Shown here: piece by piece, positions 15,251 through 38,276 of the stretch | Layout: the number at the start of each line of letters is the position of its first letter | Position numbering within the stretch: position 1 is the stretch's first letter | The notes under the pieces: generated by a model | What the model was told of the DNA's origin: nothing | The model's input: the letters and a program-made list of their open reading frames with translations, nothing else | The model's database searches: none | Made by a program: the position numbers and the translations under genes | Source: Candidatus Bathyarchaeota archaeon | GTDB lineage: Archaea; Thermoproteota; Bathyarchaeia; Bathyarchaeales; Bathycorpusculaceae | Assembly (NCBI GenBank): GCA_963739305.1 | Contig: CAVTZU010000013.1 | Location: 64,001 to 128,000, forward strand | Reading direction: 5' to 3' | Length of the DNA stretch: 64,000 nucleotides

Positions 15251-17710
15251 TTATTCTGTCTCTAGCTGTTTGTTCACGCCAGGGAAAGGTCCCGTGACGT
15301 TCACCAATGTTTCCTCATCACGTTCTTCAGCCTTTGTTTTTAACGGGAGCGATATCACAAACTCAGATCCTCGTCCCGGCGTGCTTTTCACCGAAATCTT
15401 GCCGCCGTGGCCTTCTTCGATGAAGCGTTTGCATATCGGTAGGCCAAACCCCATTCCTTTCGCTTTTGTGGTAAACAACGGGGACCAAAGCTTGTTAAGC
15501 ACGTCGTTGGTCATACCAGTGCCCGTGTCGGAGAAGGAGATTTCGACGTTTTCACCTTTCAAACTGCTCCTTATTGTTAACGTGCCGCCTTCAGGCATCG
15601 CGTCCACGGCATTCTTAATCAGGTTAACGAAGACTCTTTTTAGCTTGTCAACGTCAACCCTCAATTTCGGTTCGCTTTCAGTCAGGTCCACGACCCGAAC
15701 GCTTCTTGGGACTTCTGCAGCCGCCAAGGATTCCTTCGTTATCACTTTCGGGTTAACGACGTTTAGTTCCAGCCTGATTTCTCTCGAGTATTCCAACAAG
15801 TCGTTAATGATCTTGTTCGAATGTTGAACTGCCTTTTCAACAGTGTCTAACATTTCATTAGCCTTGCCATCCAATCGTTGACCGTACTTCGTCTTCAGGT
15901 AGTACGATGCACCTGCAATGCCAGTCAACGGGTTACGCAGGTCGTGGCCAATCATCGCTGCCAACTCGCCAATTGCAGCCAACCTTTCCGCCTTCAGCAA
16001 GTTGCCCTGAGCTTCTTTTAGCTCTCGCGTTCGATCCGCAACCTTCAATTCAAGCTTGTTTGCGTAATCTTGCACCTGAACATTGGCATCGTGCAACTGA
16101 TAAATCAACTGGGCGTTTTCAATCGCTACCGCTGCCAGATGCAAGAAAAGTTCCAAGGGCGCCAGAGACTCCTTCGTGGGCCGTTTGCCGTCGAGCGGGT
16201 CGTCCACGCTCAACCGACCCACGATGCGTCCGTCTGCTAACCGAAGCGGGGCATACAACATGTCATTTGGGTTCCAATCAATCATATCTTCAGGCTTAAG
16301 ATGACTATCGACAATGCCATCAAGGCTTGTTTCCCTGACCCAAGGATCACTCCAAGGAAGATAGTAGAACTGACCTATTCTGAAGCGTTCATACTCAAGC
16401 CCGAACTGTTCTTGAACCACTCTACCTGGCGGCCTCTTATCCCACAGATGCGTTATCTCCTCGTCAGTTAACCCCACGGTCACCAAGTCATCTGGGCTTG
16501 CCATTTCCATGTTCTTGTCTCTAACAGAAATAACTACTCTGCGCCAACCTTGACTGTTGATAGCGTCAGCAATTGCATGCAGCCGTTCATGCACATCCAT
16601 AGAGCGTATCATTTCTGCTGCACTCTTCATAAGAGAAGCCTGCTGACCAATTCGTTTCCGAACCTCCTCATGAGCTTCCTTTCGCTCAGTGACATCCCGC
16701 AAGACAACGACGCGACAAGTCACATGACCACGCCAGTCGATGATAGGGGAAATACACACGTCAAAGGCTCGGATTTCATCTCCATTGCTTAGAACAAATT
16801 CCCGGCTTGTTGCAGTCGCCTCGACCTGATCTTCTTCCTGAACAGGGAAACCTTGAAATGCGTTATTTAAAAGACATCCGACAATCTGCGATCTGGAAAG
16901 GCTGGTCAATCTTTGCGCGGCAGGATTCAAATCAACGATGTGATTTGACCCGTCCAACACGATCAGAGCGTCAACCATGCTCTCCATGAGGCTTCCCCGC
17001 GCAACTGAAATTATGTCTCTAAGATGCAAACGAGTAGGATTGACTATTGCCAGTGCTGCGGTGGAAAGACAAGTAGCCAAAGCGGTCGGGTCAAATGCAA
17101 AATTCTTTGCAGAGGTCGAATCAAATATCAAGGCTATCATCCATGGAAAGGCCGCAGTCAATAACAGAGCAATTGCCTGACGATTATACGGACGGCGGGA
17201 GCGAATAAGCATCTCAACAGAAAAAAGAGAGGTGGCAAAGAGCACGGTATAGATGTATCCCAAGAAGAGAATGTATCCAGGAGCAAACGTCTCGTTTAAT
17301 GGGAAGAACGGGTTCAACGTGTTTAACGTGACTTGGCTGAAGAAAAGACCGGTCGCCTCGTTAGTCGCGACGAGAGCATAAAAAACAAGAGACACAACGC
17401 TTAGCAATGCGATGCTTCTACGAGTGACCCATTTCTCTCGATCGGTCTGCTGAAAAGCGTACACTGCCCACGCAACCGGGATGGTGACTATTCCAGTGTA
17501 CTTGACCTCTTCAAAAAAGAACTTCGTTGCGACATCGCTGCTTGCCGTATCCAATGCTTCACCTAACGTCCATATAATACCCGCCAAAACAAGCAAAGCA
17601 ATCGCCTTGGATCCCTTCCCCCCTCTACGCCAGACCCAAACATCAACAATTGATGAAAAAGCTGCTGCACCAATCAATAGGATCACGTGAGGAGCGAAAA
17701 CAAACGTCAA
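15251..17710 (-). CDS. Sensor histidine kinase (N-terminal 7TM, PAS, GAF-like, HisKA, HATPase)
   Basis: Multiple TM segments, LNPAA PAS motif, IGHDLRNPL, NLIKNAVDAM, DTGTGM, FTTK.KGMGFGL. Confidence 0.95.
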   Translation of the reverse strand: MTFVFAPHVILLIGAAAFSSIVDVWVWRRGGKGSKAIALLVLAGIIWTLGEALDTASSDVATKFFFEEVKYTGIVTIPVAWAVYAFQQTDREKWVTRRSIALLSVVSLVFYALVATNEATGLFFSQVTLNTLNPFFPLNETFAPGYILFLGYIYTVLFATSLFSVEMLIRSRRPYNRQAIALLLTAAFPWMIALIFDSTSAKNFAFDPTALATCLSTAALAIVNPTRLHLRDIISVARGSLMESMVDALIVLDGSNHIVDLNPAAQRLTSLSRSQIVGCLLNNAFQGFPVQEEDQVEATATSREFVLSNGDEIRAFDVCISPIIDWRGHVTCRVVVLRDVTERKEAHEEVRKRIGQQASLMKSAAEMIRSMDVHERLHAIADAINSQGWRRVVISVRDKNMEMASPDDLVTVGLTDEEITHLWDKRPPGRVVQEQFGLEYERFRIGQFYYLPWSDPWVRETSLDGIVDSHLKPEDMIDWNPNDMLYAPLRLADGRIVGRLSVDDPLDGKRPTKESLAPLELFLHLAAVAIENAQLIYQLHDANVQVQDYANKLELKVADRTRELKEAQGNLLKAERLAAIGELAAMIGHDLRNPLTGIAGASYYLKTKYGQRLDGKANEMLDTVEKAVQHSNKIINDLLEYSREIRLELNVVNPKVITKESLAAAEVPRSVRVVDLTESEPKLRVDVDKLKRVFVNLIKNAVDAMPEGGTLTIRSSLKGENVEISFSDTGTGMTNDVLNKLWSPLFTTKAKGMGFGLPICKRFIEEGHGGKISVKSTPGRGSEFVISLPLKTKAEERDEETLVNVTGPFPGVNKQLETE

Positions 17711-18062: not shown

Positions 18063-18476
18063 CTACGTGGTTGATTCATAAGCGAGGCGACACAATCTGT
18101 CCGCTTCTTCGTTTTCTTCGCGAGGAACCCATCTAAAATCAATATCCAACCCCTTTATCAACTCCTTGGCTTTCGCATGCAAAGGCACTATCCGCGTGCC
18201 CTTCACCTTCCATTCGCCTCTCATCTGGCTCACAAGAAGCTTCGAATCAGACCGAAAGACTGCTTTCTCTTTATCTAACCCCAATTTTCTGACCGCCTGT
18301 AGGGCGTGAATGAGGGCAGAGTACTCGGCAACATTGTTCGTCATTTCTTTGCTCGTATCTAAAACGTCAGCGCCTTTTTCAACTACCTTACCATTTTTCT
18401 TTATCAAGTATGCAGCGCAACCGGTTCCTCCGGGGTTGATGGGCTCGCATAGACCGTCTGTCCAAACCTCTATCAT
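18063..18476 (-). CDS. rnhA: Ribonuclease HI
   Basis: VWTDGLCEPINPG, TNNVAEY, SDSKLLV.Q, WVPREENEEADRL. Confidence 0.93.
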   Translation of the reverse strand: MIEVWTDGLCEPINPGGTGCAAYLIKKNGKVVEKGADVLDTSKEMTNNVAEYSALIHALQAVRKLGLDKEKAVFRSDSKLLVSQMRGEWKVKGTRIVPLHAKAKELIKGLDIDFRWVPREENEEADRLCRLAYESTT

Positions 18477-22249: not shown

Positions 22250-24817
22250 GTGGAAAATGATTTGAAGCTTCCGATTTTCAAAGAACCTCTATTTGTCGGA
22301 AGAGAACCAGAGCTTCAGCAACTGCAACAGTTGCTCGATTCCTCACGTGCAGGAAAAGGAGCTACGGTCTTTGTCTTCGGCGAAGCAGGAGCTGGAAAAA
22401 GCAGACTCGTCAAGGAATTTCTGAAGACCGTCAGAGAGAAGGAAATCACCGTGGTGAAGGGATTCTGCATGAGCAAGACTCCTGTCCCGTATTTTCCGTT
22501 CATAGAAGCTTTCAATGCCCTCTCCTCGTCTGACCATGACCAAGACATCAGCAAGAGCGCGAAGGAACACTTGGGAATAATGGGATGGCTAAAGGGAAAT
22601 GAAATGGTAGCAGCTGAATCCATTGGGATAGCAGGATGGCTAAAAGGTCCAAAACATGATAAGACGACAAGAGAACAGCCGACACTGAGCGCTGAAATCA
22701 GGAAGGACATGACCTACGCGGCTGTGGCAAGAGCCCTGCATTCAATTTCTACAGATAAACCCTTGATTCTGTTCATAGATGACATTCATTGGGCTGACTC
22801 GGCCTCTCTGGCTTTGCTTCACTACATATCACGCACCATTGCCTCGTCGAAAGTTCTCATCGTAGTCACTGTGCGGCTTGAAGAAGCAAGTCAGGATGCC
22901 GACGGTCGTCCTCAACCTTTGGCTGAAACTCTGCAATTGATGCGGCGTGAAGACCTATTTGTCGAAATCAAAGTCCCCAGTCTGGACAAACCTGAAGTCG
23001 TGAAGTTAGCTGAACTGATGGTCAATGGACCGATTGAGGAAGAATTTGTTGAAAAACTTTCAAAAGACAGCCAGGGAAACCCACTTTTCGCAGTTGAATC
23101 TGTGAGGATGCTGATTGAATCTGGAAGTTTGGTCTGCAAGGATGGGACATGGTGTCTTACTACAAAGGAACTGAGCATACCGACAAAAGTGAAAGACGTC
23201 ATACTTTATCGGCTCAACCGACTGACAGCGATTCAGAGAAGAATGCTTGATCTGGGATCGGTAATCGGAGAAAGATTTGACCCTGCACTACTTGGGGCGG
23301 TTCTCTCTCAAGATAGGCTAGTCGTCTTAGAGACTTTGAACATGATCGCGCACTCAACTCTTCTAATTTATCCAATTGAGAATGTGTACAAGTTTGGCCA
23401 CGGGAAGTTTCGAGATGTGCTTTACGACGAAATATCTCATCCTTTGCGACGAGAATACCACGAAAGAATCGCAGAGAAAATCGAGAGTCTCACAAAGGAA
23501 ACCACAGAACTGCCAGTCAATGACTTGGCATTTCATTATGTTCAAGCAGGAAACAACGAAAAAGCAATTCAATATAGCATCGTTGCGGGTGAAGATGCCC
23601 TGAAAAGGTTCAGCAATACGGAAGCCATCAAGGCTTTCAATTATGTCCTGAAAACCACGTCAGAAAATCCAAGATACTCGGCAGAGAGGCTCGTCGCTTC
23701 GGAAGGCTTGGGCGATGCCTTCTCGGCTGAGGGCGCATTCGAGGAAGCGGCAAAAACGTTTGAGCATTTAGGCCGTATCGCGGAGTCGGGTGGAATAAGG
23801 CTTCGCGCACTCAGGAAGGCTATGACTGCATCTTTCAACAGGGGAGATTTCCTCCATGCATTAGAATTGGCGGATAAGACTGAGAAAGACTCTGCTTTTG
23901 ACAAGCTGGAGTACGCAAGGGTTCAAGTGTATAGGACAAAAACGAATAATTTCAGGGGTAACCTTCCCTTCGTTAAGGCTTTAAATGAATTGGAGAATTG
24001 TCTACAGATTTTCGAGGAGAAGAACTCCAGTCCTGACGTGGCCGATGCCTTGCTAGAAATTGGGACTCTTTACGTGACGGACTCACAAGGAGCAGAGGCT
24101 GTGCCTTTTCTCCAACGTGCTATCGATCTGTACGAGAGATTGGGAAACTCCCGAAAGCAGACTGAGGCATATTTTTGGGCTGGAAATGCGCAATTCACGC
24201 ATGGTTCTCATCAGGAGGCTCTTGACAATTGGGAAAAAACCATCAAGATTGGGGAGAAGATAGGCGACTACAACAGGATGGCATGGGCCAGACTGTATTC
24301 CGGCCTTTTGCACGAATCTATGGGAGAGCTTAAAGAAGCGCTCGAAGACTCCCTGAAAGGGATCGAATATGCTGAGAAAACAGATTCATACTATGTGCGG
24401 AGCATGATATATGCAAACATCGCTAGAGATTGCGCGAAACTCGGGGATTCCAAACGTCTAGAGGAATTCAGGGAGAAATTCACCAAATCATTTGTTGATG
24501 CGGGTAAGACGTCAAGCAAACTGGCAAGAGCCGTAGGTGTTCGCACGGAGGCTGTCCTGTTCGCGGTAGATGGTCATTGGGACGAAGCGAATAACCATTT
24601 TGAACACTGCCTTGAATTGTTTAAAGGAGCGGCAGCTGCCATTGTTCATGAAGCAATGGCCAGGGCTGATTATGCTTGGGCGCTTAGAAAGCAGGGAAGA
24701 ATTGTTGACGCAAGAAGGCAGATTGAAGAGACCAAGAAGTTGTATGAAAAGGTCGGAAGTAGATCTAATGTGGAGAGAATGGAGACAATGCTGGTCGAAA
24801 TCAAGGAGCCTTCATGA
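22250..24817 (+). CDS. STAND-class AAA ATPase with C-terminal TPR repeats
   Basis: FVGREPEL, Walker A GEAGAGKS, Walker B LFIDDIHWAD, GNPLF, F.HG.FRDVLY, then TPR-like helices. Confidence 0.92.
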   Translation: MENDLKLPIFKEPLFVGREPELQQLQQLLDSSRAGKGATVFVFGEAGAGKSRLVKEFLKTVREKEITVVKGFCMSKTPVPYFPFIEAFNALSSSDHDQDISKSAKEHLGIMGWLKGNEMVAAESIGIAGWLKGPKHDKTTREQPTLSAEIRKDMTYAAVARALHSISTDKPLILFIDDIHWADSASLALLHYISRTIASSKVLIVVTVRLEEASQDADGRPQPLAETLQLMRREDLFVEIKVPSLDKPEVVKLAELMVNGPIEEEFVEKLSKDSQGNPLFAVESVRMLIESGSLVCKDGTWCLTTKELSIPTKVKDVILYRLNRLTAIQRRMLDLGSVIGERFDPALLGAVLSQDRLVVLETLNMIAHSTLLIYPIENVYKFGHGKFRDVLYDEISHPLRREYHERIAEKIESLTKETTELPVNDLAFHYVQAGNNEKAIQYSIVAGEDALKRFSNTEAIKAFNYVLKTTSENPRYSAERLVASEGLGDAFSAEGAFEEAAKTFEHLGRIAESGGIRLRALRKAMTASFNRGDFLHALELADKTEKDSAFDKLEYARVQVYRTKTNNFRGNLPFVKALNELENCLQIFEEKNSSPDVADALLEIGTLYVTDSQGAEAVPFLQRAIDLYERLGNSRKQTEAYFWAGNAQFTHGSHQEALDNWEKTIKIGEKIGDYNRMAWARLYSGLLHESMGELKEALEDSLKGIEYAEKTDSYYVRSMIYANIARDCAKLGDSKRLEEFREKFTKSFVDAGKTSSKLARAVGVRTEAVLFAVDGHWDEANNHFEHCLELFKGAAAAIVHEAMARADYAWALRKQGRIVDARRQIEETKKLYEKVGSRSNVERMETMLVEIKEPS

Positions 24818-24912
24818 ACGGCGCTGGTCTCACGATAGTACGGACTGGTTGTTCGGTTTTTTGAGGCAACGTTGAAAGAGCTATGATTTTTTAATAAGTG
24901 ACTTGGTATTCG

Positions 24913-25116
24913 CTATTCGGTCAGTACGAGCGGTCCCAGCTTGAGAACTATCGAGCCGTCCACCTCAAGGAAACACAACGTATCACCAGGTCGCAACCCA
25001 AACTTCTTCCTGACCTCAGTGGGCACTGTTATCTGGCCTCGCGCCGTCATTTTTGATTGCCCCCTCAAAATTGCCTCAACGGAAGCGTGTTCTTCATTTC
25101 TTGTTTCTCGACTCAA
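24913..25116 (-). CDS. AbrB/MazE/SpoVT-family DNA-binding protein
   Basis: SKMTARGQITVPTEVRKKFGLRPGDTLCFLEVDGSIVL. Confidence 0.9.
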   Translation of the reverse strand: MSRETRNEEHASVEAILRGQSKMTARGQITVPTEVRKKFGLRPGDTLCFLEVDGSIVLKLGPLVLTE

Positions 25117-25269
25117 GGTTACTCAGCACTCTCCAGTCACTTTTGGAATGTTATTGCAAGTAAATCAATAAAAGACTTACTGTGTTGTATTATCATGCGT
25201 TTCTTACAATTTTTTAAGAACAGATTAGAATGTATAGTAATGACGAGGAAAAGTCGGGGGGTGAGGAAA

Positions 25270-25590
25270 ATGGAAAAGAAACCTGACGAAAAAGAACCAG
25301 TTAAGGTGAAGGAGAAGGCCAAGCTGTATCCGAAGCTTATGACGCCGGTAAGAGCCGCGATTGCACCTAGTCTCGCCAAGTCTGCTGCCCGAACAAGTGC
25401 TCGTACTAGTGCGCGAACAAGCGCACGAACAAGTGCCCGAACAAGTGCTCGCACAAACGCACGCACCAATGCTAGAACAAATGCTCGCACGAACGCGCGA
25501 ACGAACGCACGAACGAACGCTCGTACCAATGCGCGGACGAACGCCCGAACAAATGCTCGCACAAACGCGCGGACAATGACGCAGGCGTAA
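25270..25590 (+). CDS. Putative RiPP-like precursor peptide: 39-aa leader + (ARTS)5(ARTN)10 ARTM + TQA
   Basis: GGTGAGG RBS before ATG 25270; repeats use varied synonymous codons; lies directly upstream of the RRE-M50 peptidase. Confidence 0.8.
   Translation: MEKKPDEKEPVKVKEKAKLYPKLMTPVRAAIAPSLAKSAARTSARTSARTSARTSARTSARTNARTNARTNARTNARTNARTNARTNARTNARTNARTNARTMTQA
25387..25578 (+). repeat. 16 x 12-bp coding tandem repeat (GCN MGN ACN ARY)
   Basis: Counted directly: 5 ARTS, 10 ARTN, 1 ARTM; A, R and T are invariant at protein level. Confidence 0.97.
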
Positions 25591-25591
25591 A

Positions 25592-25613
25592 TGTCGTGAG
25601 CGCTCTCGCGACA
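25592..25613 (+). promoter_or_regulatory. RNA stem-loop immediately after the precursor stop codon
   Basis: TGTCGTGAG-CGCT-CTCGCGACA, a 9-bp stem with one G-U pair. Confidence 0.55.
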
Positions 25614-25688
25614 AATCGTTGCGTGGAGATAAACAACTTCACTAGTATTTTCTTTGTTTGTTTTCATTCAGAATAGAGAGGGGGGCGC

Positions 25689-28517
25689 ATGAGTACTGAC
25701 GTTGCGAGTAAGACAGACGTAATGTACGAAATCCTGTACAATCCCACAGAGTTCATTCCATTGCCTTCATCGCGGGTTAATGTAAAGACAACGATTGTTG
25801 ATAACAAACCCTCCTATTTGATGAAGAATCATGCAACTGGAACATACTACGATCTCGATGAGCTAACAGACTTGATCTGGAGTCTGACAGACGGCAAAAG
25901 AACAGTCAGTCAAATCGTCAAGGATGTTCAGGCTCAGAAACCGAAGGTGCAGGAAAAAACTGTTTTTGAAAACCTATTGTTTTTTGCTGATTCAAATCTT
26001 CTGGAGGAAAAATCTGAAGAGAAACCAAAGACGAGATTCAGAGTAGTGTCCTCCTTTGAAATGGCAATTACGTTGATTCGAAATAGCCACGGTTTCATCC
26101 ACTCTCTTCATTCACGCATACATCTGATTTTCAGGAGATGGTTACTTTGGGTCACGATCGGATTTATCATTGCGGCTGCAGTGTTGTTTGCTCGTGAATT
26201 TGTGTCGATCTATGGACAAAAAGCGAATTTCGAAATCATGGGGTCATCGGTTGTGGGCTTCTTCTTCTATTATTTTGTGCCTCTAGCTCCTGTGATTGCA
26301 ATTCATGAAATTGCCCATGCAATAACTCTTGTGCATTTCGGTGGTCAGGCTGGTGAGATGGGAACTGGCTTGTTTTACTTCAGTCCAATGTTCTATACGG
26401 ATACCACGGACGCCTGGGGGCTAACGAGAGGTCAGAGAATGCAGGTCTACCTAGCCGGAAACATTTCCACCTTGCTCATCGGAGCCGCTCTTGTTTTTGT
26501 TCATCTCTTTGTTCAGATTCCCGGGTTTGCCTCTCAAATCGTTCTCATGGTGTCTTTTTACTGTTTTTCAATGTCACTCATGAACTTTGCCCCTCCCTTC
26601 GAGACTGACGGTTATTACATACTCTCGGACGCCGTCAAGATGCCGAACCTTCGATATGACTCGTATGGCTATTTGGGCTCGGTTGTCAGACGTTTTTTCA
26701 GAAGACCTGTAAAGAAAGAAACTTCAGGGCTAACCAAAAGAAAAAAGCAGATCTTTTTATTATATGGACTTGTATCTGTGGCCTGGATCATATACATCAT
26801 TTTTCAAACGTCACTCTTCCTCGTCTATATGGGTCAAGACGTGACTGTTGCTCTCAGAAACATTGGTGGGGCAATCGTATCTTCCCAAGCGATACCGATA
26901 GCGGCAGTTGTGATTGCAACACTTTCTACCCTTTATTTCGGAATGCAACTCACAGGATACACGTTCGCTTTTTCGAGCGCGGTGAAAAAAGCCATGGCAA
27001 GACCTCTCACTCTTGAAGCCATCCATGATCGAGACTTAACTGTATTTGAGTATCTTCCTCCTGGCGTTCCAGAATTCCTCTGCAACCGTCTGAAGTCAAG
27101 AATGGAAAAGATCTCGAGGAAATTTACACCGAAGTTTGAGGTTAAACTTGTCGGACGGTCCTGCTTGGCTACATTGAGAATGGGCGGTACAAATTTGGCC
27201 TTAGTCCAAATCAAAGAGCATCTGAAACGGATTGAAAAAGAGTTTAACTCGGCGTATGAGAAACTTATACTAAGTCATAAGGACACGATTCAAAGATCGG
27301 TAGGTGTCCACTCCCCACAAAAGATTGGATTCACAAACGCTTTCAAACAATTTGCGACTGAATCATCAGAAGCGGGAAATTCCACTGCGTTCAACATTGC
27401 TCGAGCTTGTGAAAAAACTCAAGAAGAGACTCTCTTGTATCTTCTGCAATCGGCTTGTGGCACGGTTTGGAACATCGAAGTTCCGCCCTCCCAAGAATAC
27501 GAGTTTCAGAAAGAGTTGGCACCATCTTTACTTCTTGAAGACATGACTTTAACTGACCTTTACCACGACACTGAGAACTTCAAAAAACGCGTCATCTACG
27601 GTTTGGATTCGCTTATGGTTTTGGCAGTCGACACCGAAACTGCAATGAAGGAAGGACTTGCCAAACCGGATGAGTATCAATGTCTGAGTGTGTTAGAACC
27701 CATAAAGAGCCGAATCATTTTCGTAGGTCGAACTGACCCGATTGCCTACAAGTCAGAGGCATTCGCACCTATCTTTCTTACGTACACATGGACCGGCTAC
27801 ACGGACAATCTTTTGTGCGAGACCTGTCTGAAACTCGCAACAATCAAGCGAGCTCGTCTGCCTGATTCCAAAGAGATAGAAGAGTTAAGCATCGGCGAAT
27901 TAGCCGTTCTGTCGAAGGATCTCATGCTTTTCGATCAAACCAGGGATCTGGTTGATAGGCGAATTAAAAAGACTATGGAACAATTTGCCAAAATGAATCA
28001 AAGTCTTGCTGAAATGCAGCATACGGCAGAATCAGTGCAAATTTTCAAAATCGGAATGTTGGAAGCAGCTTTGCGTGTGAACACCGAGAATTTGACCTCT
28101 ATCCCCGGCAGGATTAGATGTTTCCAGAAAGATTGGAGTATAATGTGCAAGAGAATTGGGAAAGTGCAAGACCACGTTCAAAAGGCATACGATGAGACGA
28201 AGCCAGGCATCGAAAAGAGAAAACGCCATTTGCTGATGTTTTCTCCCTTCATCGTCATGGCGTCTGTTTTGCTCCTTGTTTTGGGCTTCAAACAAATGCC
28301 AACATCATGGTCGATTATATTATTCTCACTTTCGGCTGCGGTGCAGGTTGCCTATTGGACATTTTCCTATCGAGCGTGGAACTCAGCTCGCAAAGTTTCG
28401 AAGTATTCGGCCGAGGCTTTCAACTCAGTTCACACTGTTCTTCTAGCTCTGACAGAAGCCGTTTTCGGTTACGTGACGACCGAAGACGCTTTGACTCTGG
28501 ACGAGACATCAGTCTGA
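25689..28517 (+). CDS. PqqD/RRE domain - M50 (site-2 protease-like) zinc metallopeptidase fusion with a large C-terminal domain of unknown function
   Basis: YLMKNHATGTYYDLDELTDLIWSLTDGKRTVSQIV...SNLLE (PqqD-like); HEIAH; GEMGTG...PMFYTDTTDAW; VYLAG; NFAPPFETDGYYILSD; several TM segments. Confidence 0.9.
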   Translation: MSTDVASKTDVMYEILYNPTEFIPLPSSRVNVKTTIVDNKPSYLMKNHATGTYYDLDELTDLIWSLTDGKRTVSQIVKDVQAQKPKVQEKTVFENLLFFADSNLLEEKSEEKPKTRFRVVSSFEMAITLIRNSHGFIHSLHSRIHLIFRRWLLWVTIGFIIAAAVLFAREFVSIYGQKANFEIMGSSVVGFFFYYFVPLAPVIAIHEIAHAITLVHFGGQAGEMGTGLFYFSPMFYTDTTDAWGLTRGQRMQVYLAGNISTLLIGAALVFVHLFVQIPGFASQIVLMVSFYCFSMSLMNFAPPFETDGYYILSDAVKMPNLRYDSYGYLGSVVRRFFRRPVKKETSGLTKRKKQIFLLYGLVSVAWIIYIIFQTSLFLVYMGQDVTVALRNIGGAIVSSQAIPIAAVVIATLSTLYFGMQLTGYTFAFSSAVKKAMARPLTLEAIHDRDLTVFEYLPPGVPEFLCNRLKSRMEKISRKFTPKFEVKLVGRSCLATLRMGGTNLALVQIKEHLKRIEKEFNSAYEKLILSHKDTIQRSVGVHSPQKIGFTNAFKQFATESSEAGNSTAFNIARACEKTQEETLLYLLQSACGTVWNIEVPPSQEYEFQKELAPSLLLEDMTLTDLYHDTENFKKRVIYGLDSLMVLAVDTETAMKEGLAKPDEYQCLSVLEPIKSRIIFVGRTDPIAYKSEAFAPIFLTYTWTGYTDNLLCETCLKLATIKRARLPDSKEIEELSIGELAVLSKDLMLFDQTRDLVDRRIKKTMEQFAKMNQSLAEMQHTAESVQIFKIGMLEAALRVNTENLTSIPGRIRCFQKDWSIMCKRIGKVQDHVQKAYDETKPGIEKRKRHLLMFSPFIVMASVLLLVLGFKQMPTSWSIILFSLSAAVQVAYWTFSYRAWNSARKVSKYSAEAFNSVHTVLLALTEAVFGYVTTEDALTLDETSV

Positions 28518-28592: not shown

Positions 28593-29375
28593 TTGATTCA
28601 GATGCCATTATCTGACCACAAGAGATTTTCAAAAACAACACGCAACTCTTCGGACACTCGTGAAGGATCCCTAAAAGAAGCGTTGTCCGAGCCTCGGAAA
28701 CCTGTCGGGGTTGATCGCGTGACAGATCTCATGAATTGTATGGATATTTCAAAGAAGGTTTATCATTCTTCAATTCTGCCCAAGAAACTTTCCAGTAGCA
28801 ATTCAGCCAAGACAAGAGTAGTTGGGGGAATTTCTAGAAATCTTGGTTCACATTCGTTCTCGGATAAACGATTGAAGCCCCGAGACTTCAACCTATGCAG
28901 AATCCCGAAAAAAAGCTCGAGTCTGCTGAGTAAAAGTGTTAATAGCTCTAGTTTTCTGATGGGAATTTTTACGCGAGAGGGACCCACATCAAAGTTTCCA
29001 TCAGCCTTTGTTGACAAGAACAAACTAGTAATGCACAAGCTGAATCGACCTCTTTCTCGAAAAGAAGTCAATTCAAATAATCAAAAACTCGGGCACTTTT
29101 CAAATGCTACTGCACTTCGATTGTTTGAAGCTTTGTCAAAGGAGCCAATGGAGTTTCTTCGTCTTCACACAAGTTTTGGAGTTTCAAAGCGGACCGTGAG
29201 GGGGTTCGTCAGAAATGGATGGTTAACAGAGACGTGGGGACGAGGAGGCGTGGGTATTCGGTTCAGACTTTCAGAGAAGGGAAGGAACTATCTAAAAAGC
29301 CTTGAGGAATATTCAAAGTACGAAACAAAACCGAATCTGCGAAACTTCATTCGTCTAAAAAATAGAGCCTTCTGA
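28593..29375 (+). CDS. Hypothetical protein with a disordered basic/Ser-rich N-terminus and a C-terminal winged helix
   Basis: LRLFEALSKEPMEFLRLHTSFGVSKRTVRGFVRNGWLTE...FRLSEKGRNYL; TTTATAAG upstream. Confidence 0.65.
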   Translation: MIQMPLSDHKRFSKTTRNSSDTREGSLKEALSEPRKPVGVDRVTDLMNCMDISKKVYHSSILPKKLSSSNSAKTRVVGGISRNLGSHSFSDKRLKPRDFNLCRIPKKSSSLLSKSVNSSSFLMGIFTREGPTSKFPSAFVDKNKLVMHKLNRPLSRKEVNSNNQKLGHFSNATALRLFEALSKEPMEFLRLHTSFGVSKRTVRGFVRNGWLTETWGRGGVGIRFRLSEKGRNYLKSLEEYSKYETKPNLRNFIRLKNRAF

Positions 29376-31123: not shown

Positions 31124-32545
31124 TCACTGCTTCTTCGTAAGGTATTCGTGAATGGCTCTCGCAGCCTTCTTGCCTGCTCCCATCGCGCTTATCACAGTGG
31201 CTTCACCCGTAACTATGTCACCGCCCGCGTAGACGCCTTCAATGTTCGTTTTCCCGTTCTCATCAGACACTATTGTACCCCATTTCGTCACTTCCAACCC
31301 CTCCGTCGTGCTCTGTATGATCGGATTCGGCGTCCTGCCCACTGCAACGATAACGGTGTCAGTGTCCATCACAAACTCTGAACCCTTCACGGGAACAGGT
31401 CTTCTTCTGCCAGACTGGTCCGGGGGCCCCAACTCCATACATACACACTCCATCGCCTTCACCCAGCCTTTCTCGTCCCCGAAGAACCTTATTGGGTTCG
31501 CCAAAAACTTGCAGAGTATCCCCTCCTCCTCAGCATTCTCGATCTCTTCTTTGCGAGCAGGCATCTCTTCTCGCGACCGACGATAGACAATGCACACTTC
31601 CTCAGCACCCAAACGCAATGCCGAGCGAGCAGAATCCATGGCAACGTTGCCGCCGCCGATAACGACCACATGCTTTCCGATTCTGATCGGCGTATCATAA
31701 AGAGGAAACGCGTACGCCTTCATCAGGTTCACGCGAATCAGAAACTCGTTTGCAGAATAGATCCCGCCAAGGTTCTCGCCCGGCACCCCCAAGAACGCTG
31801 GCAGACCCGCTCCGGTGCCAATGAAAACAGCACCAAAGCCTCTTTCCTTGAGTAGCTCTGGAATCGTGTAAACTCTTCCAACAAGATAACCCAAATGAAA
31901 GTCAGCCCCAAGCTTCTGGATGTAATCCGCTTCAGCCTGAACAATCTTCTTTGGCAATCGGAACTCAGGGATCCCGTAAACCAAAACCCCCCCGGGGACG
32001 TGTAAAGCTTCAAAGATCTCGACCTTGTGCCCCATCCTGACGAGGTCCGCCGCAGCGGTAAGCCCAGCTGGGCCGGCACCGACTATCGCTATTTTCTTGC
32101 CTGTTGACGGTGCCCTCTCGGATAGTTTTGTTCTTCCTCTGTCTCTTTCCCAGTCTGCCAACCAACGTTCCAGCCTGCCGATACTGACTGGTTCACCGAC
32201 TTTAGCAAGGATGCAGCACTTTTGGCACTGCTCTTCCTGCGGGCATACACGCCCACAAATGGCTGGCAAGCTATTCTTCTCTTTGATCTTCGCTATGGCC
32301 TCATCATACTTTCCTTCCCTCAACAGCTTGACGAATTCAGGGATGCTTATCTCAACCGGGCAGCCCGTGACACACTGGGGTTTTGGACACTGTAAACAAC
32401 GGTTCGCCTCTGCCTTTGCTTGCTCCTCAGTATAGCCGAGAGCAACTTCATCAAAATTCTTCCTGCGGTCCTCTGGCTTCTGCTTGGGCATCTGCTCTGC
32501 TTCTTTCTTTATCTTAGGTTTCGGTTTACTTTCTGCCACAGGCAC
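31124..32545 (-). CDS. sudA: NfnB/SudA (NADPH-dependent glutamate synthase beta-chain-like) subunit
   Basis: EANRCLQC..P.C..GCP, CGRVCPQE.QC, GAGPAG, YGIPEFRLPK, GGGNVAMD. Confidence 0.93.
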   Translation of the reverse strand: MPVAESKPKPKIKKEAEQMPKQKPEDRRKNFDEVALGYTEEQAKAEANRCLQCPKPQCVTGCPVEISIPEFVKLLREGKYDEAIAKIKEKNSLPAICGRVCPQEEQCQKCCILAKVGEPVSIGRLERWLADWERDRGRTKLSERAPSTGKKIAIVGAGPAGLTAAADLVRMGHKVEIFEALHVPGGVLVYGIPEFRLPKKIVQAEADYIQKLGADFHLGYLVGRVYTIPELLKERGFGAVFIGTGAGLPAFLGVPGENLGGIYSANEFLIRVNLMKAYAFPLYDTPIRIGKHVVVIGGGNVAMDSARSALRLGAEEVCIVYRRSREEMPARKEEIENAEEEGILCKFLANPIRFFGDEKGWVKAMECVCMELGPPDQSGRRRPVPVKGSEFVMDTDTVIVAVGRTPNPIIQSTTEGLEVTKWGTIVSDENGKTNIEGVYAGGDIVTGEATVISAMGAGKKAARAIHEYLTKKQ

Positions 32546-33365
32546 AGCTTCCTTGCAATTGATAGATGAAAGAGCTCAGTCTTTCCTCAGGCAGAAACAT
32601 TCTCTGCCTGTTCACCAACTCGTCAAAATCCACTGCGTGTCCATCAAATTCTGGGCCGTCAACGCATCCGAACTTCATCTTGCCGCTGACGGTAACTCTG
32701 CACACCCCACACATTCCCATACCGTCTATCATTACAGGCGTCAAAGTAACGATTGTGGGCACTTTGCAGGACCTCGTCAACTCTGCCACATTTCGCATCA
32801 TCACGATAGGTCCATAGGTAACGCAGCGATCAAACCTGCCTTTTTCAAGAACATCCTTGAGAAAATCTAGTCCTTCGAAGCCTTTGGATCCGTCATCGGT
32901 TGTAACATAGAACTCATCGCAGAGGAGCTTCATCTCTTCTTCGAAGAAAAGCAGGTCCTTGGTTCTGGCTCCAATGGCAACCGTCACGCTGTTTCCGGCT
33001 TCCCTAAGCGCCTTCACCTGAAGCAGCATAGGTGCGATCATTACACCGCCGCCGACGCATAGAACTTTCCCGAAGTTCTTCACCTCGGAAGGTTTTCCCA
33101 GAGGTCCCGTTATGCTCTGCACACAATCGCCTTCGTTGAGGCATCCCAACTGCCGGGTTGTCTTGCCGACCTCATTGAAGGCGAAGCATACTGTTCCCTT
33201 CTTTGGATCGTATCCGGCAAAAGTCAGAGGAACGCGTTCACCCTTCTCGTCGATCATTAACATGATGAATTGGCCAGGACGAGCTTTTTGAGCTATTTCA
33301 GGAGCATCAACCTCAAACCACTTGATCTTCGGTGCCAGCTCCCTCTTCGAGAGAATCTTATACAT
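32526..33365 (-). CDS. sudB: NfnA/SudB (sulfide/dihydroorotate dehydrogenase-like FAD/NAD-binding, 2Fe-2S) subunit
   Basis: ARPGQFI...GERVPLT, GPLG, GGG, MIDGMGMCGVCRV...CVDGPEFD. Confidence 0.93.
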   Translation of the reverse strand: MYKILSKRELAPKIKWFEVDAPEIAQKARPGQFIMLMIDEKGERVPLTFAGYDPKKGTVCFAFNEVGKTTRQLGCLNEGDCVQSITGPLGKPSEVKNFGKVLCVGGGVMIAPMLLQVKALREAGNSVTVAIGARTKDLLFFEEEMKLLCDEFYVTTDDGSKGFEGLDFLKDVLEKGRFDRCVTYGPIVMMRNVAELTRSCKVPTIVTLTPVMIDGMGMCGVCRVTVSGKMKFGCVDGPEFDGHAVDFDELVNRQRMFLPEERLSSFIYQLQGSCACGRK

Positions 33366-34575
33366 TGGTTCTCACCTCTACACTCACCATCTTCAAAGGA
33401 GGCAGGGACGCAATCTTCTTTTCAAACTCGGCGAGCTTCTGATCAAATTCGCCAACGCATCTCGGGTTAACCGTGAACAACTCGAAACGCTCAAGCAACC
33501 CCATTTTTTTCAACGAATTCTTGAGGACAGAAACGTTTCTTTCAGCCGTTTCCTTTCCTTCCTGAAGCTTACAGTCTTCCGGTGAACATACCGCGGCCAT
33601 TACACCGTCAAACCCGTTCTGCAAAGCGTTGAAAACATGAACTGGGTCTAAAGCCTTGAAGCATGGAACCTCCAACATCAAGACTTTCTTGTTCAACGGG
33701 CTTTCAGAGTCGTCTAATGCTGAGAACTCTGACCATTGACAAACGAAAACAAGAATGAGCGGCGATACTCCTTGCTTCTTGAGCTGCCTAGCAGCTTCCA
33801 CGTAACGTTTGAGTACGTTGTCAAACTCGAAACCCTTGACCTCAATCGCGTTATAAGGGCAGACCAATGCACAGGCTCCACAACCCTTGCACTTGTCCGC
33901 AAGAATCTTAGGAGTCGCCAATTGCTGTGCCTCTATTGCCTTGTAGGGACAGATGAACACGCACTTGTCGCAGCCTACGCATTTTGACGTGTCGTAAATC
34001 GCTTTCCTGGAGTATTTGATGACTTTGAAGGCGTCTTTGTGGAGCCCGAATTGCTCGAGCACTTTTCCGCCCAGAACCATTCTTCGAGTGTTTATCTTCG
34101 TGCCCTCCTTGAAGCGGCAGAAGTCATCCTCACATTGAAGCGAGACGATTCTCTTTATGCCACTTTTCAAGACTTTGAAAATGAACTCCGCTGGAATGCG
34201 TCCAGCACAGGGAACACGTAGAGGTATGTATTTCTCTATTCTCAAACCGTTTTCTTTGAGGATCTCCTGCACCTCGCCACTTGAAGGTGAGTTACCTCTG
34301 CACATCAGGACGAGCGTATCGCTCCTGCACTTTTCCTGCAAGACCTTAACGTGATTGAGCAAGCTTTCATAATCATAGTACATGATTTCCACTGCCATAA
34401 CAGGGCAAGCGCTGTAACATATGCCGCAGACCTGGCACTTTTGAAGGTCTATCTCAACCTTGCCGGTTTCTGGGTCACGTTTTATCGCTTCGTATGGACA
34501 TATCGAATGGCAGATGGAACACCTGCTACAAAGATCTTCGTTGATCATTATTGCTGCGGCACATTTCTTGCTCAT
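33358..34575 (-). CDS. Polyferredoxin with two MvhD/FlpD-like domains
   Basis: Four CxxCxxCxxxCP motifs; RVPCAGRI...CEDDFCRF and FVCQWSE...EVPC...GFDGV...CSPEDC. Confidence 0.85.
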   Translation of the reverse strand: MSKKCAAAIMINEDLCSRCSICHSICPYEAIKRDPETGKVEIDLQKCQVCGICYSACPVMAVEIMYYDYESLLNHVKVLQEKCRSDTLVLMCRGNSPSSGEVQEILKENGLRIEKYIPLRVPCAGRIPAEFIFKVLKSGIKRIVSLQCEDDFCRFKEGTKINTRRMVLGGKVLEQFGLHKDAFKVIKYSRKAIYDTSKCVGCDKCVFICPYKAIEAQQLATPKILADKCKGCGACALVCPYNAIEVKGFEFDNVLKRYVEAARQLKKQGVSPLILVFVCQWSEFSALDDSESPLNKKVLMLEVPCFKALDPVHVFNALQNGFDGVMAAVCSPEDCKLQEGKETAERNVSVLKNSLKKMGLLERFELFTVNPRCVGEFDQKLAEFEKKIASLPPLKMVSVEVRTNV

Positions 34576-34682
34576 TTACTCTGACTCCTCGGCTTTTTGT
34601 CTTTCAACCTTCCCTGAGACAATCGTTTTCGTGACTCTGAAAAGAATTATTCTGAACGATATATTGGTTTTGAGGGGTTTAG

Positions 34683-35615
34683 CTACTTTCTATAGTATGG
34701 TCTTTCGATGAAGGCGTATGCCTCAACCGCAGCAGTTATTCCTTGTCCAACAGCTACTCCTATTTGCTTGACGGGATGGTTTGCAACGTCACCCGCAGCA
34801 TAGACTCCTTCGATGTTGGTGTGCTGCAGCGCGTCAACGATGATGTTGCCATCTTTGTCAACAGCAACTCCGGCTTCTTTAGCTTGCTGGGAGTTAGGGT
34901 CCTCACCAATCTGGACGAAAACGCCGTCAGTCAAAACCTCTCCAGTTTCACCGCTTTGGTTGTTGATGATGATGACCTTCGTCACACTCTTCTCGCCAAG
35001 AATCTCCTTGACCTCGGAGTTCCAAAGAACCTCGATGTTTTTCATCATTTTCAAGTCCTGAGCCAAAGCATCTTCCGCCCTGAAGGTGTTCTTGCGGTGA
35101 ACGAGTTTGACGTCTGATCCGAGATGAGCAAGGTACAGCGCAGTTATGAGCGCCGTGTTCCCCCCTCCAACAACCACAACTCGCTTGTTTTTGAAAAATG
35201 GGCCATCACATAGCCCGCAGTAACTCACCCCTCTTCCACGGAACTCTTCTTCGCCCGGAACTCCAAGACGACGATACGTTGCTCCAGAAGCAACTATAAT
35301 CGCTTTGGCCTCGAACGTTCCCTTTTCAGTTTCAACTACCTTCTTATCGACTCCCAGGACCATTCTCACAACCCTTTCAAACTCGTTGATCTTCGCGCCT
35401 GTTTCCTTAGTTTGAGCAACCATTTTCTGTGCGAGCTCGGTGCCTTCGATATTTTGAAAACCAGGATAGTTCTCCACCCATGGCGCGTCGGCTGTAGTTC
35501 CCCCAGCTATTTTCTCTTCCAGAATGATCGTCTTGAGTCCGCTTCGAGCGCCATAAATCCCAGCGGCCATGCCAGCGGCTCCCGCGCCTATTATCAATAA
35601 ATCGCAGCTTTCCAT
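34683..35615 (-). CDS. trxB: Thioredoxin-disulfide reductase
   Basis: GAGAAG, VENYPG, GRGVSYCGLCDG, GGGNTA, GVYAAGD. Confidence 0.95.
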   Translation of the reverse strand: MESCDLLIIGAGAAGMAAGIYGARSGLKTIILEEKIAGGTTADAPWVENYPGFQNIEGTELAQKMVAQTKETGAKINEFERVVRMVLGVDKKVVETEKGTFEAKAIIVASGATYRRLGVPGEEEFRGRGVSYCGLCDGPFFKNKRVVVVGGGNTALITALYLAHLGSDVKLVHRKNTFRAEDALAQDLKMMKNIEVLWNSEVKEILGEKSVTKVIIINNQSGETGEVLTDGVFVQIGEDPNSQQAKEAGVAVDKDGNIIVDALQHTNIEGVYAAGDVANHPVKQIGVAVGQGITAAVEAYAFIERPYYRK

Positions 35616-35851
35616 GCTCTCTCAACTCTGAGACCCATTATTCTAACCACTCGTGGTTTATGAAATATTCGCAAAGCAAGAGGACTACGGGATATCTCTC
35701 TTATCGCAAACAATGTGCTTCTGCACTAACCTATGCTTCATGGTGTAAACATTCGGCTGGACTCTGAAAGCGAAAGGCTTCAACTGGAAGCTTGTTCCAG
35801 AATCCTTATAATCGAGGTTCAAAAGATGGTAGCTCAAGAGGAGAGAAAGAA

Positions 35852-37018
35852 ATGATCAGAAAAATCGCAGTTCTATCTTTGATCGTTCTGCTTGCCTCAT
35901 TCATCTACGTCACCGCTGCCGCAATGCCGCACGCATCTGCCGCTGCGCCAGTACAGTTGTTCATCGACCCTCCACAAATCGTTGATCAGACTCTAGTGCC
36001 AAACACCATGTTCAACGTTTCAGTCAAGGTAGCTAACATTCCTGCTGACCCCGGGGTCGTCGGCATTGAGTTCAACGTGACCTGGGATCCAACGATACTC
36101 ACTGGAATCAGCCAGCAGGAAATTATCTTCCACCAGGTGACGCCGACAAGTCAATGGAGCAACATTTGGGCTCTCACGGATGATGTCGAGACCAACTCCG
36201 TAGCGTATGCTTACACCTTCCAGAACATCGCCAAGGCCAAAACAGGCGGCTACGCACCGATAAACGGAAGCTACACCGTCGCAAACATCACGCTTCAGGT
36301 AGTAGGCGTCGGAAAATGCCCACTGCACTTCTACGTGTCAAAACTAGGAGACCCAACGGGCACCGCAATCGACCACGACACAACTGATGGATTCTTTAAC
36401 AACATAGTTCCACCCCCACCGCCAGCAGCTGCACTGCTCTCACTTGATCCAGCGAAAATCGTCAACTCTGGCCTCGTTGTCGGCACAACCTTCTCAGTAA
36501 GCGTTAATATCACAAACGCCACGAACCTCGGCGGCCTAGAATTCAAACTTGGCTTCAACGTAAGCGTTCTGAACGCGCTTTCTGTTAACGCCGGCGGAAT
36601 TCCTTTCACCGGAACAGCAACACAGATAGATAATTCGACAGGATTCATAATGTTCAATGCCACATCAGTCCCGTCTTTGAACATCACGGGCACTGCGGCG
36701 ATAGTTCAATTCAAAGTGATGGCAGACGGAGTCAAAAACTCGCTCTTGCACTTGTACAATGTGACGCTCGTCGATGGTGACGGCAATCCGTTACCGTTCA
36801 ACACGACCGATGGAAGCTTCACGAACACGAAGATCATCCCAGGCGACATAGACTCAAACGGAATCGTCGACATCTACGACGCAATCGCGGCTGCTCGCGC
36901 GTTCGGTTCGACTCCTGCATCCCCTAACTGGAACGCCGCGGCAGACCTTAACGGAGACGGACAAATAGACATCTTTGACCTAATAATAATCGGACAGAAC
37001 TTCCGTCAAAAAGCGTAA
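35852..37018 (+). CDS. Secreted protein with two cohesin-like domains and a C-terminal dockerin-like domain
   Basis: Signal peptide; FNVSVKVAN...FNVTWDPTIL and FSVSVNITN...FKLGFNVSVL; PPPPP linker; GDIDSNGIVDIYD...ADLNGDGQIDIFD. Confidence 0.88.
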   Translation: MIRKIAVLSLIVLLASFIYVTAAAMPHASAAAPVQLFIDPPQIVDQTLVPNTMFNVSVKVANIPADPGVVGIEFNVTWDPTILTGISQQEIIFHQVTPTSQWSNIWALTDDVETNSVAYAYTFQNIAKAKTGGYAPINGSYTVANITLQVVGVGKCPLHFYVSKLGDPTGTAIDHDTTDGFFNNIVPPPPPAAALLSLDPAKIVNSGLVVGTTFSVSVNITNATNLGGLEFKLGFNVSVLNALSVNAGGIPFTGTATQIDNSTGFIMFNATSVPSLNITGTAAIVQFKVMADGVKNSLLHLYNVTLVDGDGNPLPFNTTDGSFTNTKIIPGDIDSNGIVDIYDAIAAARAFGSTPASPNWNAAADLNGDGQIDIFDLIIIGQNFRQKA

Positions 37019-37066
37019 ACCTCTTTCCCTTTTTTCTTTTGCAGCTCATCCAAAAGACGAATCAGT

Positions 37067-38176: not shown

Positions 38177-38276
38177 GTCGGTCCATCGCTTTTTAGTGAA
38201 ACGGGAGCATAAGGTTATTAAAGCGTTTTCCCGTGAATCATTCAAAATCGTTCATAGGCTAAGGAGATTTCAACCA

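Follow-up and report, generated by a model that had tools for sequence, protein, structure and literature searches.

Intramembrane proteases that are fused to a recognition element (RRE) for peptides that are made on the ribosome and modified after translation (RiPPs) have so far been tied to modified bacterial peptides, the daptides and epipeptides. SpoIVFB, a member of the site-2 protease (S2P) family with an extra cytoplasmic CBS domain and no RRE, removes the short N-terminal pro-sequence of pro-sigma-K and yields an active cytoplasmic product. Polycations of short period that are rich in Ala, Lys, Arg, Pro and Thr are found in histone H1 tails, protamines, AlgP (KPAA repeats) and mycobacterial HupB (PAKKA repeats); no repeat of this H1/protamine type is known to come with a leader or to be paired with an intramembrane protease. 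Daptide clusters encode an RRE fused N-terminally to an intramembrane site-2 protease (MpaP) that removes the leader, a precursor that ends in a Thr converted to a Dmp group, and the proteins MpaB (DUF-RRE), MpaC, MpaD and MpaM (10.1101/2023.03.08.531785). Here, a locus is described that lies in a stretch of 64,000 nucleotides of a Candidatus Bathyarchaeota archaeon (GenBank assembly GCA_963739305.1, contig CAVTZU010000013.1, positions 64,001 to 128,000); this whole stretch is called the window and its own positions are used throughout. One gene encodes a peptide of 106 amino acids (aa) with a leader and 16 tandem tetrapeptides, and the next gene encodes a membrane protease of 942 aa with an RRE-like domain at its N-terminus. 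The repeat peptide is probably a leader-guided substrate of the adjacent protease, which would release a regular polycation, and this reading is given a probability of roughly 0.6. The same logic of recognition and cleavage would then operate in Bathyarchaeia, uncultured archaea that abound in peat and sediment, on a type of substrate that appears to be unprecedented, as tandem-repeat polycations that look unmodified were absent from the literature searched. A full-text search, with subscription journals and supplements outside its coverage, returned no description of the cassette or the peptide family.

The locus resembles the daptide pair of DapP/MpaP protease and MpaA precursor in its combination of an N-terminal RRE-like domain with a membrane HExxH protease and in a short neighbouring open reading frame (ORF) with a conserved leader. 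The best family match of the protease is the NCBIfam model daptide_HExxH (NF041824, daptide biosynthesis intramembrane metalloprotease), which residues 42-411 match with E 1.9e-44 and 152.3 bits against an equivalog cut-off of 300. Unlike in daptide clusters, the window scan found no MpaB/C/D/M-type genes and no aminotransferase, iron-containing alcohol dehydrogenase or methyltransferase nearby, and Thr is not the conserved end of the precursor, as the window peptide ends in ...TQA and its relatives in P, E, Q, A, T and other residues. The core is a tandem-repeat polycation, the hosts are archaea and the protease includes an additional domain, roughly 500 aa long, that is confined to this family. 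Identity with daptides was rejected on the score below the equivalog cut-off, the missing Mpa partner genes and the different precursor ends. In epipeptide maturation, a small ribosomal peptide is likewise processed by a membrane HExxH protease, YydH/LiaK, whereas the locus described here has a repeat precursor and no adjacent radical-SAM epimerase or ABC transporter (the nearest radical-SAM gene, 12221-13105, is about 12 kb away). The YydH/LiaK epipeptide protease model NF058609 is matched weakly (E 1.3e-9, 38.1 bits versus a cut-off of 225), and this score together with the lack of an adjacent radical-SAM gene led to the rejection of a YydF/LiaK-type epipeptide identity as well.

SpoIVFB and pro-sigma-K offer a descriptive parallel: there, an S2P-family protease with a cytoplasmic domain acts on a soluble cytoplasmic protein, which fits the topology proposed below, but here an RRE-like domain takes the place of the CBS domain and a repeat peptide that of the sigma factor. 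With H1 tails, protamines, AlgP and HupB the peptide family shares regularly spaced positive charge and a filler of Ala, Pro, Thr and Ser, and ARAP and AKAP units are common in it; the H1-type repeats, unlike these peptides, are appended to folded DNA-binding domains or are nuclear. Fungal Kex2-processed repeat proteins (KEPs) are likewise ribosomal precursors that consist of tandem copies of a short peptide with basic residues per unit (PMC7329392). As secretory proteins of eukaryotes, KEPs carry a signal peptide and have their cores separated by dibasic sites, whereas the Bathyarchaeia peptide has a single basic residue inside the unit, no spacer, no signal peptide and an RRE-protease as partner.

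The repeat-peptide gene and its family

The gene and its upstream region contain the following features.

25163 to 25183, no strand assigned: intergenic block with the consensus TAA.AAAAA.C TTACT in 32 aligned upstream regions, nearer to the divergent AbrB gene
25190 to 25218, + strand: block TCATG..TTTC.TACAAT.T.TTAAA, conserved in 70% or more of the 32 aligned upstream regions and located some 55 nt ahead of the ATG
25256 to 25266, + strand: Shine-Dalgarno site GGGGGGTGAGG, ending 3 nt before ATG 25270
25270 to 25590, + strand: repeat-peptide gene, 106 aa and stop codon by ORF translation, with ATG 25270 as the likely start
25270 to 25386, + strand: leader and linker, 39 aa, MEKKPDEKEPVKVKEKAKLYPKLMTPVRAAIAPSLAKSA, from an alignment of 36 leaders
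25387 to 25578, + strand: tandem array of 16 tetrapeptide units (ARTS x5, ARTN x10, ARTM x1) in the frame of the ORF
25579 to 25590, + strand: non-repeat tail TQA and stop codon, by translation of the ORF

Comparative data settle that the ORF bearing the array is a real coding gene of the + strand, because its leader, its codon pattern relative to the nearest leader, its Shine-Dalgarno site and its promoter block are all conserved in the sense orientation; the preference of the earlier note for this strand is thereby borne out. In the alignment of 36 distinct orthologues, the first 29 or so residues follow the Lys/Glu-rich consensus MExxxExxKPxKPxEKxKIYPKLxxPxRA, which includes the motif K-x-K-(I/V/L)-(Y/F)-P-K-L and an invariant Pro21. 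Comparison of the window leader with its nearest relative, from locus L082, over 41 aligned codons gave 14 identical, 16 synonymous and 11 non-synonymous positions, and most of the 11 sit after the leader motif. A GG(A/G)GGTG Shine-Dalgarno site is located a few bases 5' of the ATG in all 39 full-length family members, and the 106-aa protein is probably strongly translated. The block at 25190-25218 may combine an operator with the archaeal TFB recognition element (BRE) and TATA box of the repeat-peptide gene. The block at 25163-25183 may serve the divergent AbrB gene as its TATA element, act as an operator, or do both. The repeat-peptide gene is present in one copy in its own genome (a 2.3-Mb assembly of 36 contigs), as is each of the other cassette genes. 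No Pfam or NCBIfam family matches the 106-aa peptide, and an Rfam scan of 24500-26200 detected nothing near the array.

The array was found to be as the earlier note had described it, with 16 consecutive in-frame units of 12 nt whose fourth residue switches from S to N to M. The codon lists of that note were also correct by site counts: Ala uses all four codons (GCC 3, GCT 6, GCG 4, GCA 3), Thr all four (ACA 9, ACG 4, ACC 2, ACT 1) and Arg five (CGA 7, CGC 4, CGT 2, CGG 2, AGA 1). Sites 1, 2, 5, 7, 8 and 10 of the unit are constant across all 16 copies, while variation is heavy at sites 3, 6, 9 and 12, the third positions of the codons; site 4 has a single C>A change (CGA>AGA, silent) and site 11 carries the S>N>M switch. 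Diversity among the units at codon positions 1, 2 and 3 amounts to 0.033, 0.119 and 0.66, respectively. Fourteen of the 16 DNA units are distinct, with a mean pairwise identity of 0.72, and Tandem Repeats Finder reported a period of 12 with 75-79% matches. Neighbouring units differ at 35 A/R/T sites, and the A/R/T codons require a minimum of 10 changes, all of which are synonymous. With a synonymous outcome expected for about 35% of the single-base substitutions in these codons, this conservative count gives a P of about 3e-5. A slippage microsatellite or minisatellite was rejected, since all variation is at third positions except for the one silent first-position change and the switch at the fourth residue. 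The array is thus not a recent slippage product, and the near-saturated third positions beside a constant A-R-T confirm that it is maintained at the protein level by old purifying selection, both as previously proposed. The C-terminal 67 aa, which start with the array, contain 16 K+R and no D/E, in agreement with the 16 Arg and the lack of acidic residues given in the earlier note, and no aromatic or Cys residues.

The antisense frame is open as well and nearly as regular, reading VRA(F/L) with one VLA (R>L) and a few F/L changes. The AGA codon does break the antisense VRA pattern, as the earlier note had argued in favour of the + frame; by itself this argument is weak, because antisense third positions coincide with sense third positions and the array alone therefore separates the strands poorly. 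One public peat-metagenome contig of the window's population lacks exactly one 12-nt (ARTS) unit at 25414, and another covers the whole array unchanged; the unit loss is seen in short assembled contigs, in which an assembly artefact is possible. A co-occurring diverged strain (25569-25636) shows the changes T>S, Q>P and A>V in the last peptide residues (codons read by hand) and many base changes in the spacer before the protease gene.

Orthologues were found to carry wholly different units with periods of 4 to 20 residues, which the earlier note had not foreseen. The survey comprised 48 distinct peptide sequences, some of them cut by contig ends, and the number of sequences for each period is given in brackets.

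Period 4 (22): ARAP/AKAP, ARSP, SRAP, ATGR, ASTR, TPRA/TART, MKTP, TMKP, QARP/KARP, RQAT
Period 5 (3): TRAAA, KAATV, LKTRQ
Period 6 (6): KERIAA, IKARTQ, GLGAKS
Period 7 (1): MTRKPVS
Period 8 (6): TKLGTHxx, TKTLARLD, MRAGQKAQ
Period 10 (1): LTPNQLxAMR
Period 12 (6): AKSVAKSVAKSR, AAKTRALSMAKS
Periods 16, 18 and 20 (1 each)

Total repeat lengths range from about 28 to 190 residues, and unit numbers are lower bounds where contig ends or N gaps interrupt the arrays (L004, L016, L026, L054). The pooled repeats consist of 29% A, 13% R, 12% P, 12% T and 11% K, with no Cys or Trp, nearly no aromatic residues and about 0.6% Asn. The K+R fraction is close to 0.25 in nearly every array of period 4, and almost every unit contains a basic residue. 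What is shared across the family is a regular period with spaced positive charge; Asn, Thr or a particular motif are not shared. The ordering of the array in blocks that the earlier note had pointed out is real and recurs in relatives (PQIR>PQAR, KARP>QARP, AKAP>TKAP). The frameshifts or non-synonymous scatter in orthologous arrays that would have refuted its reading were not encountered, as these arrays are in frame and internally regular. One case departs from perfect regularity: the tail behind the L017 array is shifted and longer than in its near-identical relative L052. These TMKP arrays (L017 6789-7121, - strand; L052 4389-4583, - strand) have 10 and 7 units, and the L017 frame continues past its array into a different, longer tail that overlaps the 3' end of the protease gene. 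A frameshift, or else an error in assembling the repeat, would account for this tail.

Most relatives resemble the window in their DNA, with a third-position diversity of 0.70 among 19 perfect ARSP units and of 0.65 to 0.70 in ARAP arrays (maximum 0.75). Most arrays are thus old and under purifying selection, because their synonymous sites are near saturation while the protein is almost invariant, and the window array is, by its codons, an example of this old state. Seven arrays (L059, L099, L083, L082, L026, L069, L088) have zero diversity at all positions and L006 nearly so; the former are considered young because their units are identical in DNA. L017, L049, L052, L081 and L089 are intermediate. 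L059 and L099 differ by the same residue in every unit (GLGAKS versus GLGAKG), and the number of AKAP units differs among L063, L097 and L016. We infer that the arrays are born and homogenized by in-frame duplication and then persist for a long time under strong purifying selection on every unit. Units are replaced wholesale between close lineages, yet within an array they are held invariant as the synonymous sites approach saturation; with unusual clarity, the family thus offers a natural example of selection for polymer regularity, in which repeats are born, homogenized and then frozen. The window linker, ...LAKSAARTS, resembles the units of L004 (...MAKSAAKTR) and L082 (AKS(V/R)), and this resemblance suggests that adjacent pieces of a single ancestral segment were amplified independently. 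The protease tree groups the window with L004 (12-residue unit) and L054 (RQAT) in a fully supported clade whose three members have unrelated units, and the sister clade carries ARAP; the rows L017, L020 and L022 of this tree were disregarded as mis-extracted (wrong longest ORF, very long branches). The deepest protease clade (L024 6879-7532, - strand; L066; L090) has 10-residue units such as MRLTPNQLAA, SLKPEQxxAL and NLTAAQIQSL, which look helical and amphipathic, not disordered, and contain fewer charges.

The repeat peptides are essentially absent from protein catalogues. A search of 1.84 billion representative proteins with the leader profile, which has only 29 positions and low power, returned a single 36-aa fragment, so that gene catalogues miss nearly all members. 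Eleven matches listed as precursor homologues were judged spurious, as all were low-complexity ARTx/HARTx translations that lack the leader, and a protein atlas search with the precursor was uninformative (best score 0.76).

The cassette and its membrane protease

The remaining members of the four-gene cassette, with the domains and motifs of the protease, are located as follows.

24913 to 25116, - strand: AbrB/SpoVT-type small protein, 67 aa, divergent from the repeat-peptide gene (Pfam MazE_antitoxin E 1.3e-8; NCBIfam AbrB TIGR01439 E 1.5e-11)
25689 to 28517, + strand: 942-aa membrane protein with PqqD/RRE-like domain, S2P-like HExxH metalloprotease and C-terminal domain of about 500 aa (NCBIfam, Pfam, orthologues)
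25758 to 26009, + strand: RRE-like domain, residues 24-107 approximately, predicted as four short strands followed by three helices (AlphaFold2 (AF2) secondary structure)
26304 to 26318, + strand: HEIAH zinc-binding motif, residues 206-210 (H206, E207, H210), invariant in 10 orthologues
26583 to 26612, + strand: NFAPPFETDG, residues 299-308 (N299, P302, D307, G308), invariant in 10 orthologues
26976 to 28514, + strand: C-terminal domain, residues 430-942, with alpha/beta modules, long helices and a two-helix transmembrane hairpin at the end in the AF2 model
28593 to 29375, + strand: 260-aa protein with a C-terminal winged-helix-like region, weak Pfam matches only (TBPIP, HVO_A0261_N)

Linkage was assessed in 42 of the 95 loci examined, namely those with a complete protease gene and at least 400 nt on both flanks, some duplicate contigs included. 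For 39 of them, an automatic screen picked up a basic ORF of tandem repeats next to the protease, and 10-residue repeats found by eye in L066 and L090 raise this number to 41. A conserved leader with a variable core beside an RRE-like protein, as is typical of RiPP-type precursors, is thus present in 41 of 42 loci. Wherever the flanks extend far enough, the AbrB gene (67-91% identity in tblastn) and the winged-helix gene (31-57% identity, adjoining the protease in most loci) are also present. In the window's clade the peptide gene is upstream of the protease gene and co-directional, here with the protease gene starting 98 bases downstream, whereas in most loci it is downstream and convergent; this difference amounts to an inversion of the protease gene alone. 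The STAND ATPase (AAA_16) with TPR repeats that adjoins the cassette in the window (22250 to 24817, + strand; Pfam) was rejected as a member, since it was seen beside the cassette in only 3 of the 95 loci (L006, L062, L077), many of which have short flanks. This ATPase partly matches the NCBIfam model "TOMM system kinase/cyclase fusion protein" with E 1.7e-59, far under the cut-off. PADLOC reported no defence system and one spurious low-complexity match on the peptide.

All related cassette loci that were assessed come from Candidatus Bathyarchaeia. The long protease is encoded in 5 of 61 related genomes, the own genome included, and within the genus in the own genome and 2 of 10 others; it was not found in a single-contig genome of the same genus. 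Among 401 genomes of the class, 8 have any match, with the long form in the own genome and one other and a short form of about 440 aa in five. A pattern search in one genome per prokaryotic species returned 11 loci, all titled Candidatus Bathyarchaeia or Bathyarchaeota, and from the metagenome contigs the best 80 of 113 relatives were kept. The short form (about 430-440 aa; L009-L013, another Bathyarchaeia family; for example L010 1477-2766) consists of the RRE-like and HExxH parts and has no C-terminal domain, and no repeat ORF was detected within 1.5 kb of these homologues.

The protease is annotated publicly as "M50 family metallopeptidase", "DUF3267 domain-containing protein" or "putative peptide zinc metalloprotease". 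An HExxH motif followed by NxxPxxxxDG with a third zinc ligand is the signature of M50/S2P site-2 proteases. Both motifs are invariant in the 10 orthologues and fall within hydrophobic segments by a hydropathy count. The window protein did not match Pfam Peptidase_M50 and hit only DUF3267 ("putative zincin peptidase", E 0.0066), while the homologue P0023 stays narrowly under the Peptidase_M50 threshold (26.4 versus 27.2 bits). The RRE-like domain is separated from the C-terminal domain by six hydrophobic segments, and the loop 303-353 is rich in K/R (hydropathy and charge count). On the positive-inside rule, this arrangement would put the RRE-like domain, the two catalytic motifs and the large C-terminal domain at the cytoplasmic face.

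The AF2 model of the full-length protein has a low confidence (predicted local distance difference test (pLDDT) 61) and was used for secondary structure only. The model of the C-terminal domain is confident (pLDDT 84.9, predicted template modelling score 0.81), and residues 430-942 are conserved over their whole length. This domain is restricted to proteins of the same architecture, with 83 clusters of about 925-980 aa or fragments thereof. Foldseek against the Protein Data Bank (PDB) returned nothing at E <= 1e-3; CorA and methyl-coenzyme M reductase beta, which appeared in its weak top rows with a probability of 0.2-0.35, were rejected as folds. A wide VIA-align search gave helical-hairpin matches only (Z <= 9.4), and no fold was assigned. 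Like the repeat peptides, the domain is experimentally tractable.

Proposed release of a polycation and the alternatives

Guided removal of the leader is proposed because a protease with an RRE-like domain, a neighbouring short ORF and the logic of conserved leader and variable core are common to this cassette and the daptide and epipeptide pathways. In the proposed mechanism, the putative RRE domain would bind the leader, and the membrane-embedded active site near the cytoplasmic face would cut between the leader and the repeats. A regular polycation would thus be set free, in the window with about 16 positive charges in about 67 residues that include no acidic, aromatic or Cys residues, and the AbrB and winged-helix proteins would control the divergent promoters. 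With the RRE-like domain, active site and extra domain all apparently cytoplasmic and no exporter present, secretion is considered no more likely than release inside the cell. The suggestion in the earlier note that the product is "released by the peptidase" is plausible on this basis, and of the roles listed there the polycation is the best fit to the regular spaced positive charge of the whole family. Its nitrogen store found no support with a single-copy product of 106 aa. As neither an exporter nor a core-modifying enzyme is linked to it (Pfam scans of window neighbours from 12 to 40 kb), the cassette is assigned to no known RiPP class and, for lack of a modification, does not count as a strict RiPP, although the unmatched C-terminal domain could hide an activity. 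A complex of protease residues 1-440 with the leader (47 aa) was predicted with a score of 0.02, which gives no verdict and is not evidence either way.

Several observations weigh against leader-guided release. The cassette locus L074 has no detectable repeat ORF, and neither does the divergent protease locus L087 (36% identity), which also has no AbrB and winged-helix genes. In most loci the peptide and protease genes are convergent, so that their link rests on synteny and not on co-transcription. Pfam scans found neither a modifying enzyme nor a transporter among the cassette genes or up to about 12 kb away in the window, which leaves both RiPP-type modification and export unaccounted for. 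The RRE assignment is weak by sequence, as the Pfam PqqD match to the N-terminus (E 2e-4) reaches 22.1 bits versus a cut-off of 23.4 and the best PDB profile match, to the lasso-peptide RRE TbiB1 (residues 46-108), has an E of only 0.019, followed by a PqqD chaperone with E 0.49. The protease scores far under the curated daptide and epipeptide cut-offs given above, and the conserved N-terminal part of the peptide could be a functional domain and not a cleaved leader.

A wider version of leader-guided release is offered tentatively. In a new archaeal system of this kind, a protamine-like polycation would be kept inert by its leader and freed in the cell by the RRE-guided intramembrane protease, with the 500-aa domain sensing a signal or handling the repeat, and the polymer would then bind nucleic acids or ribosomes. 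Such a protease-gated polycation could serve, for example, in nucleoid compaction, dormancy or defence, and its unit sequence would be free to change between lineages while the charge spacing is kept.

Among the alternatives, the one that survives best, while still being unlikely, is an uncleaved protein that binds nucleic acids or other polyanions like a histone H1 tail. The N-terminus would then be a functional or interaction module, and the membrane protein would have another role or only regulate. The pooled composition given above (29% A, 13% R, 12% P, 12% T, 11% K, no Cys) resembles low-complexity tails in histone H1 and in H1-like proteins of bacteria; the very strong Shine-Dalgarno site suggests an abundant protein, two proteins of a DNA-binding type are part of the cassette, and there is no exporter. 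This explanation has to accommodate the near-obligate linkage to an RRE-fused protease whose closest characterized relatives remove leaders, and a conserved N-terminus with a hypervariable C-terminus is the architecture of leader-guided substrates.

It is rather improbable that the peptide is a multi-core precursor, cut at the basic residue of each unit into many short peptides (tetrapeptides T-S-A-R and T-N-A-R) that serve each species as a signal or effector of its own. In its favour, each unit is held by strong purifying selection, and the units are hypervariable between lineages next to a conserved leader, as would be expected for peptides that bear specificity. A possible cleavage site is at hand in the basic residue of almost every unit, and the S block followed by the N block would yield two products. 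However, the scans of the cassette and window found no linked second protease, exporter or importer, the TPR/STAND gene beside the window cassette is not conserved, there are no spacers or dibasic sites between units, and unit lengths of 4 to 20 with total repeats of about 28 to 190 residues do not indicate a single product size. Repeat precursors as such have a precedent in the fungal Kex2-processed proteins (PMC7329392).

A regular beta-structure, in which an Asn/Thr ladder forms a solenoid or an amyloid-like fibre with alternating small and polar faces, is very improbable. In a strand of ART(S/N), one face would indeed present A and T (residues 1 and 3) and the other R and S/N (residues 2 and 4), but the commonest unit types in relatives have one Pro per unit (ARAP, ARSP, MKTP, QARP), and one charge per four residues on one face disfavours stacking. 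As a function of the family, the Asn/Thr ladder of the earlier note is excluded by an Asn content of only about 0.6% of the repeat residues. Hardly any credence is left to a non-coding or antisense-coded slippage repeat with the + frame as a by-product, which draws on the open and nearly regular VRA(F/L) frame with its shared third positions and is already contradicted by the comparative data: family members conserve the promoter, the Shine-Dalgarno site, the start codon and the leader in sense orientation, 14 of the 16 DNA units of the array differ at constant protein, and 24500-26200 has no Rfam match.

Other genes in the window

Further features of the window were recorded apart from the cassette. 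A 256-aa ORF at 2051-2821 (+ strand) has a highly charged end rich in Glu, Arg and Lys (...EREEERDEIDAKERREARRKE...) that is encoded by a purine-rich tandem repeat of 75 nt (2655-2803, 2 copies, 85% matches). A histidine kinase with an N-terminal region of seven transmembrane segments and a PAS domain is encoded at 15251-17710 (- strand), and a stand-alone RNase H-like (RVT_3) gene at 18063-18476 (- strand). The region 31124-40643 contains a cluster of heterodisulfide-reductase/MvhD-like genes with FlpD, CCG and many 4Fe-4S domains and pyridine-nucleotide-disulphide oxidoreductases. The gene at 35792-37018 (+ strand) encodes a protein with cohesin and dockerin type I domains in this archaeal genome.

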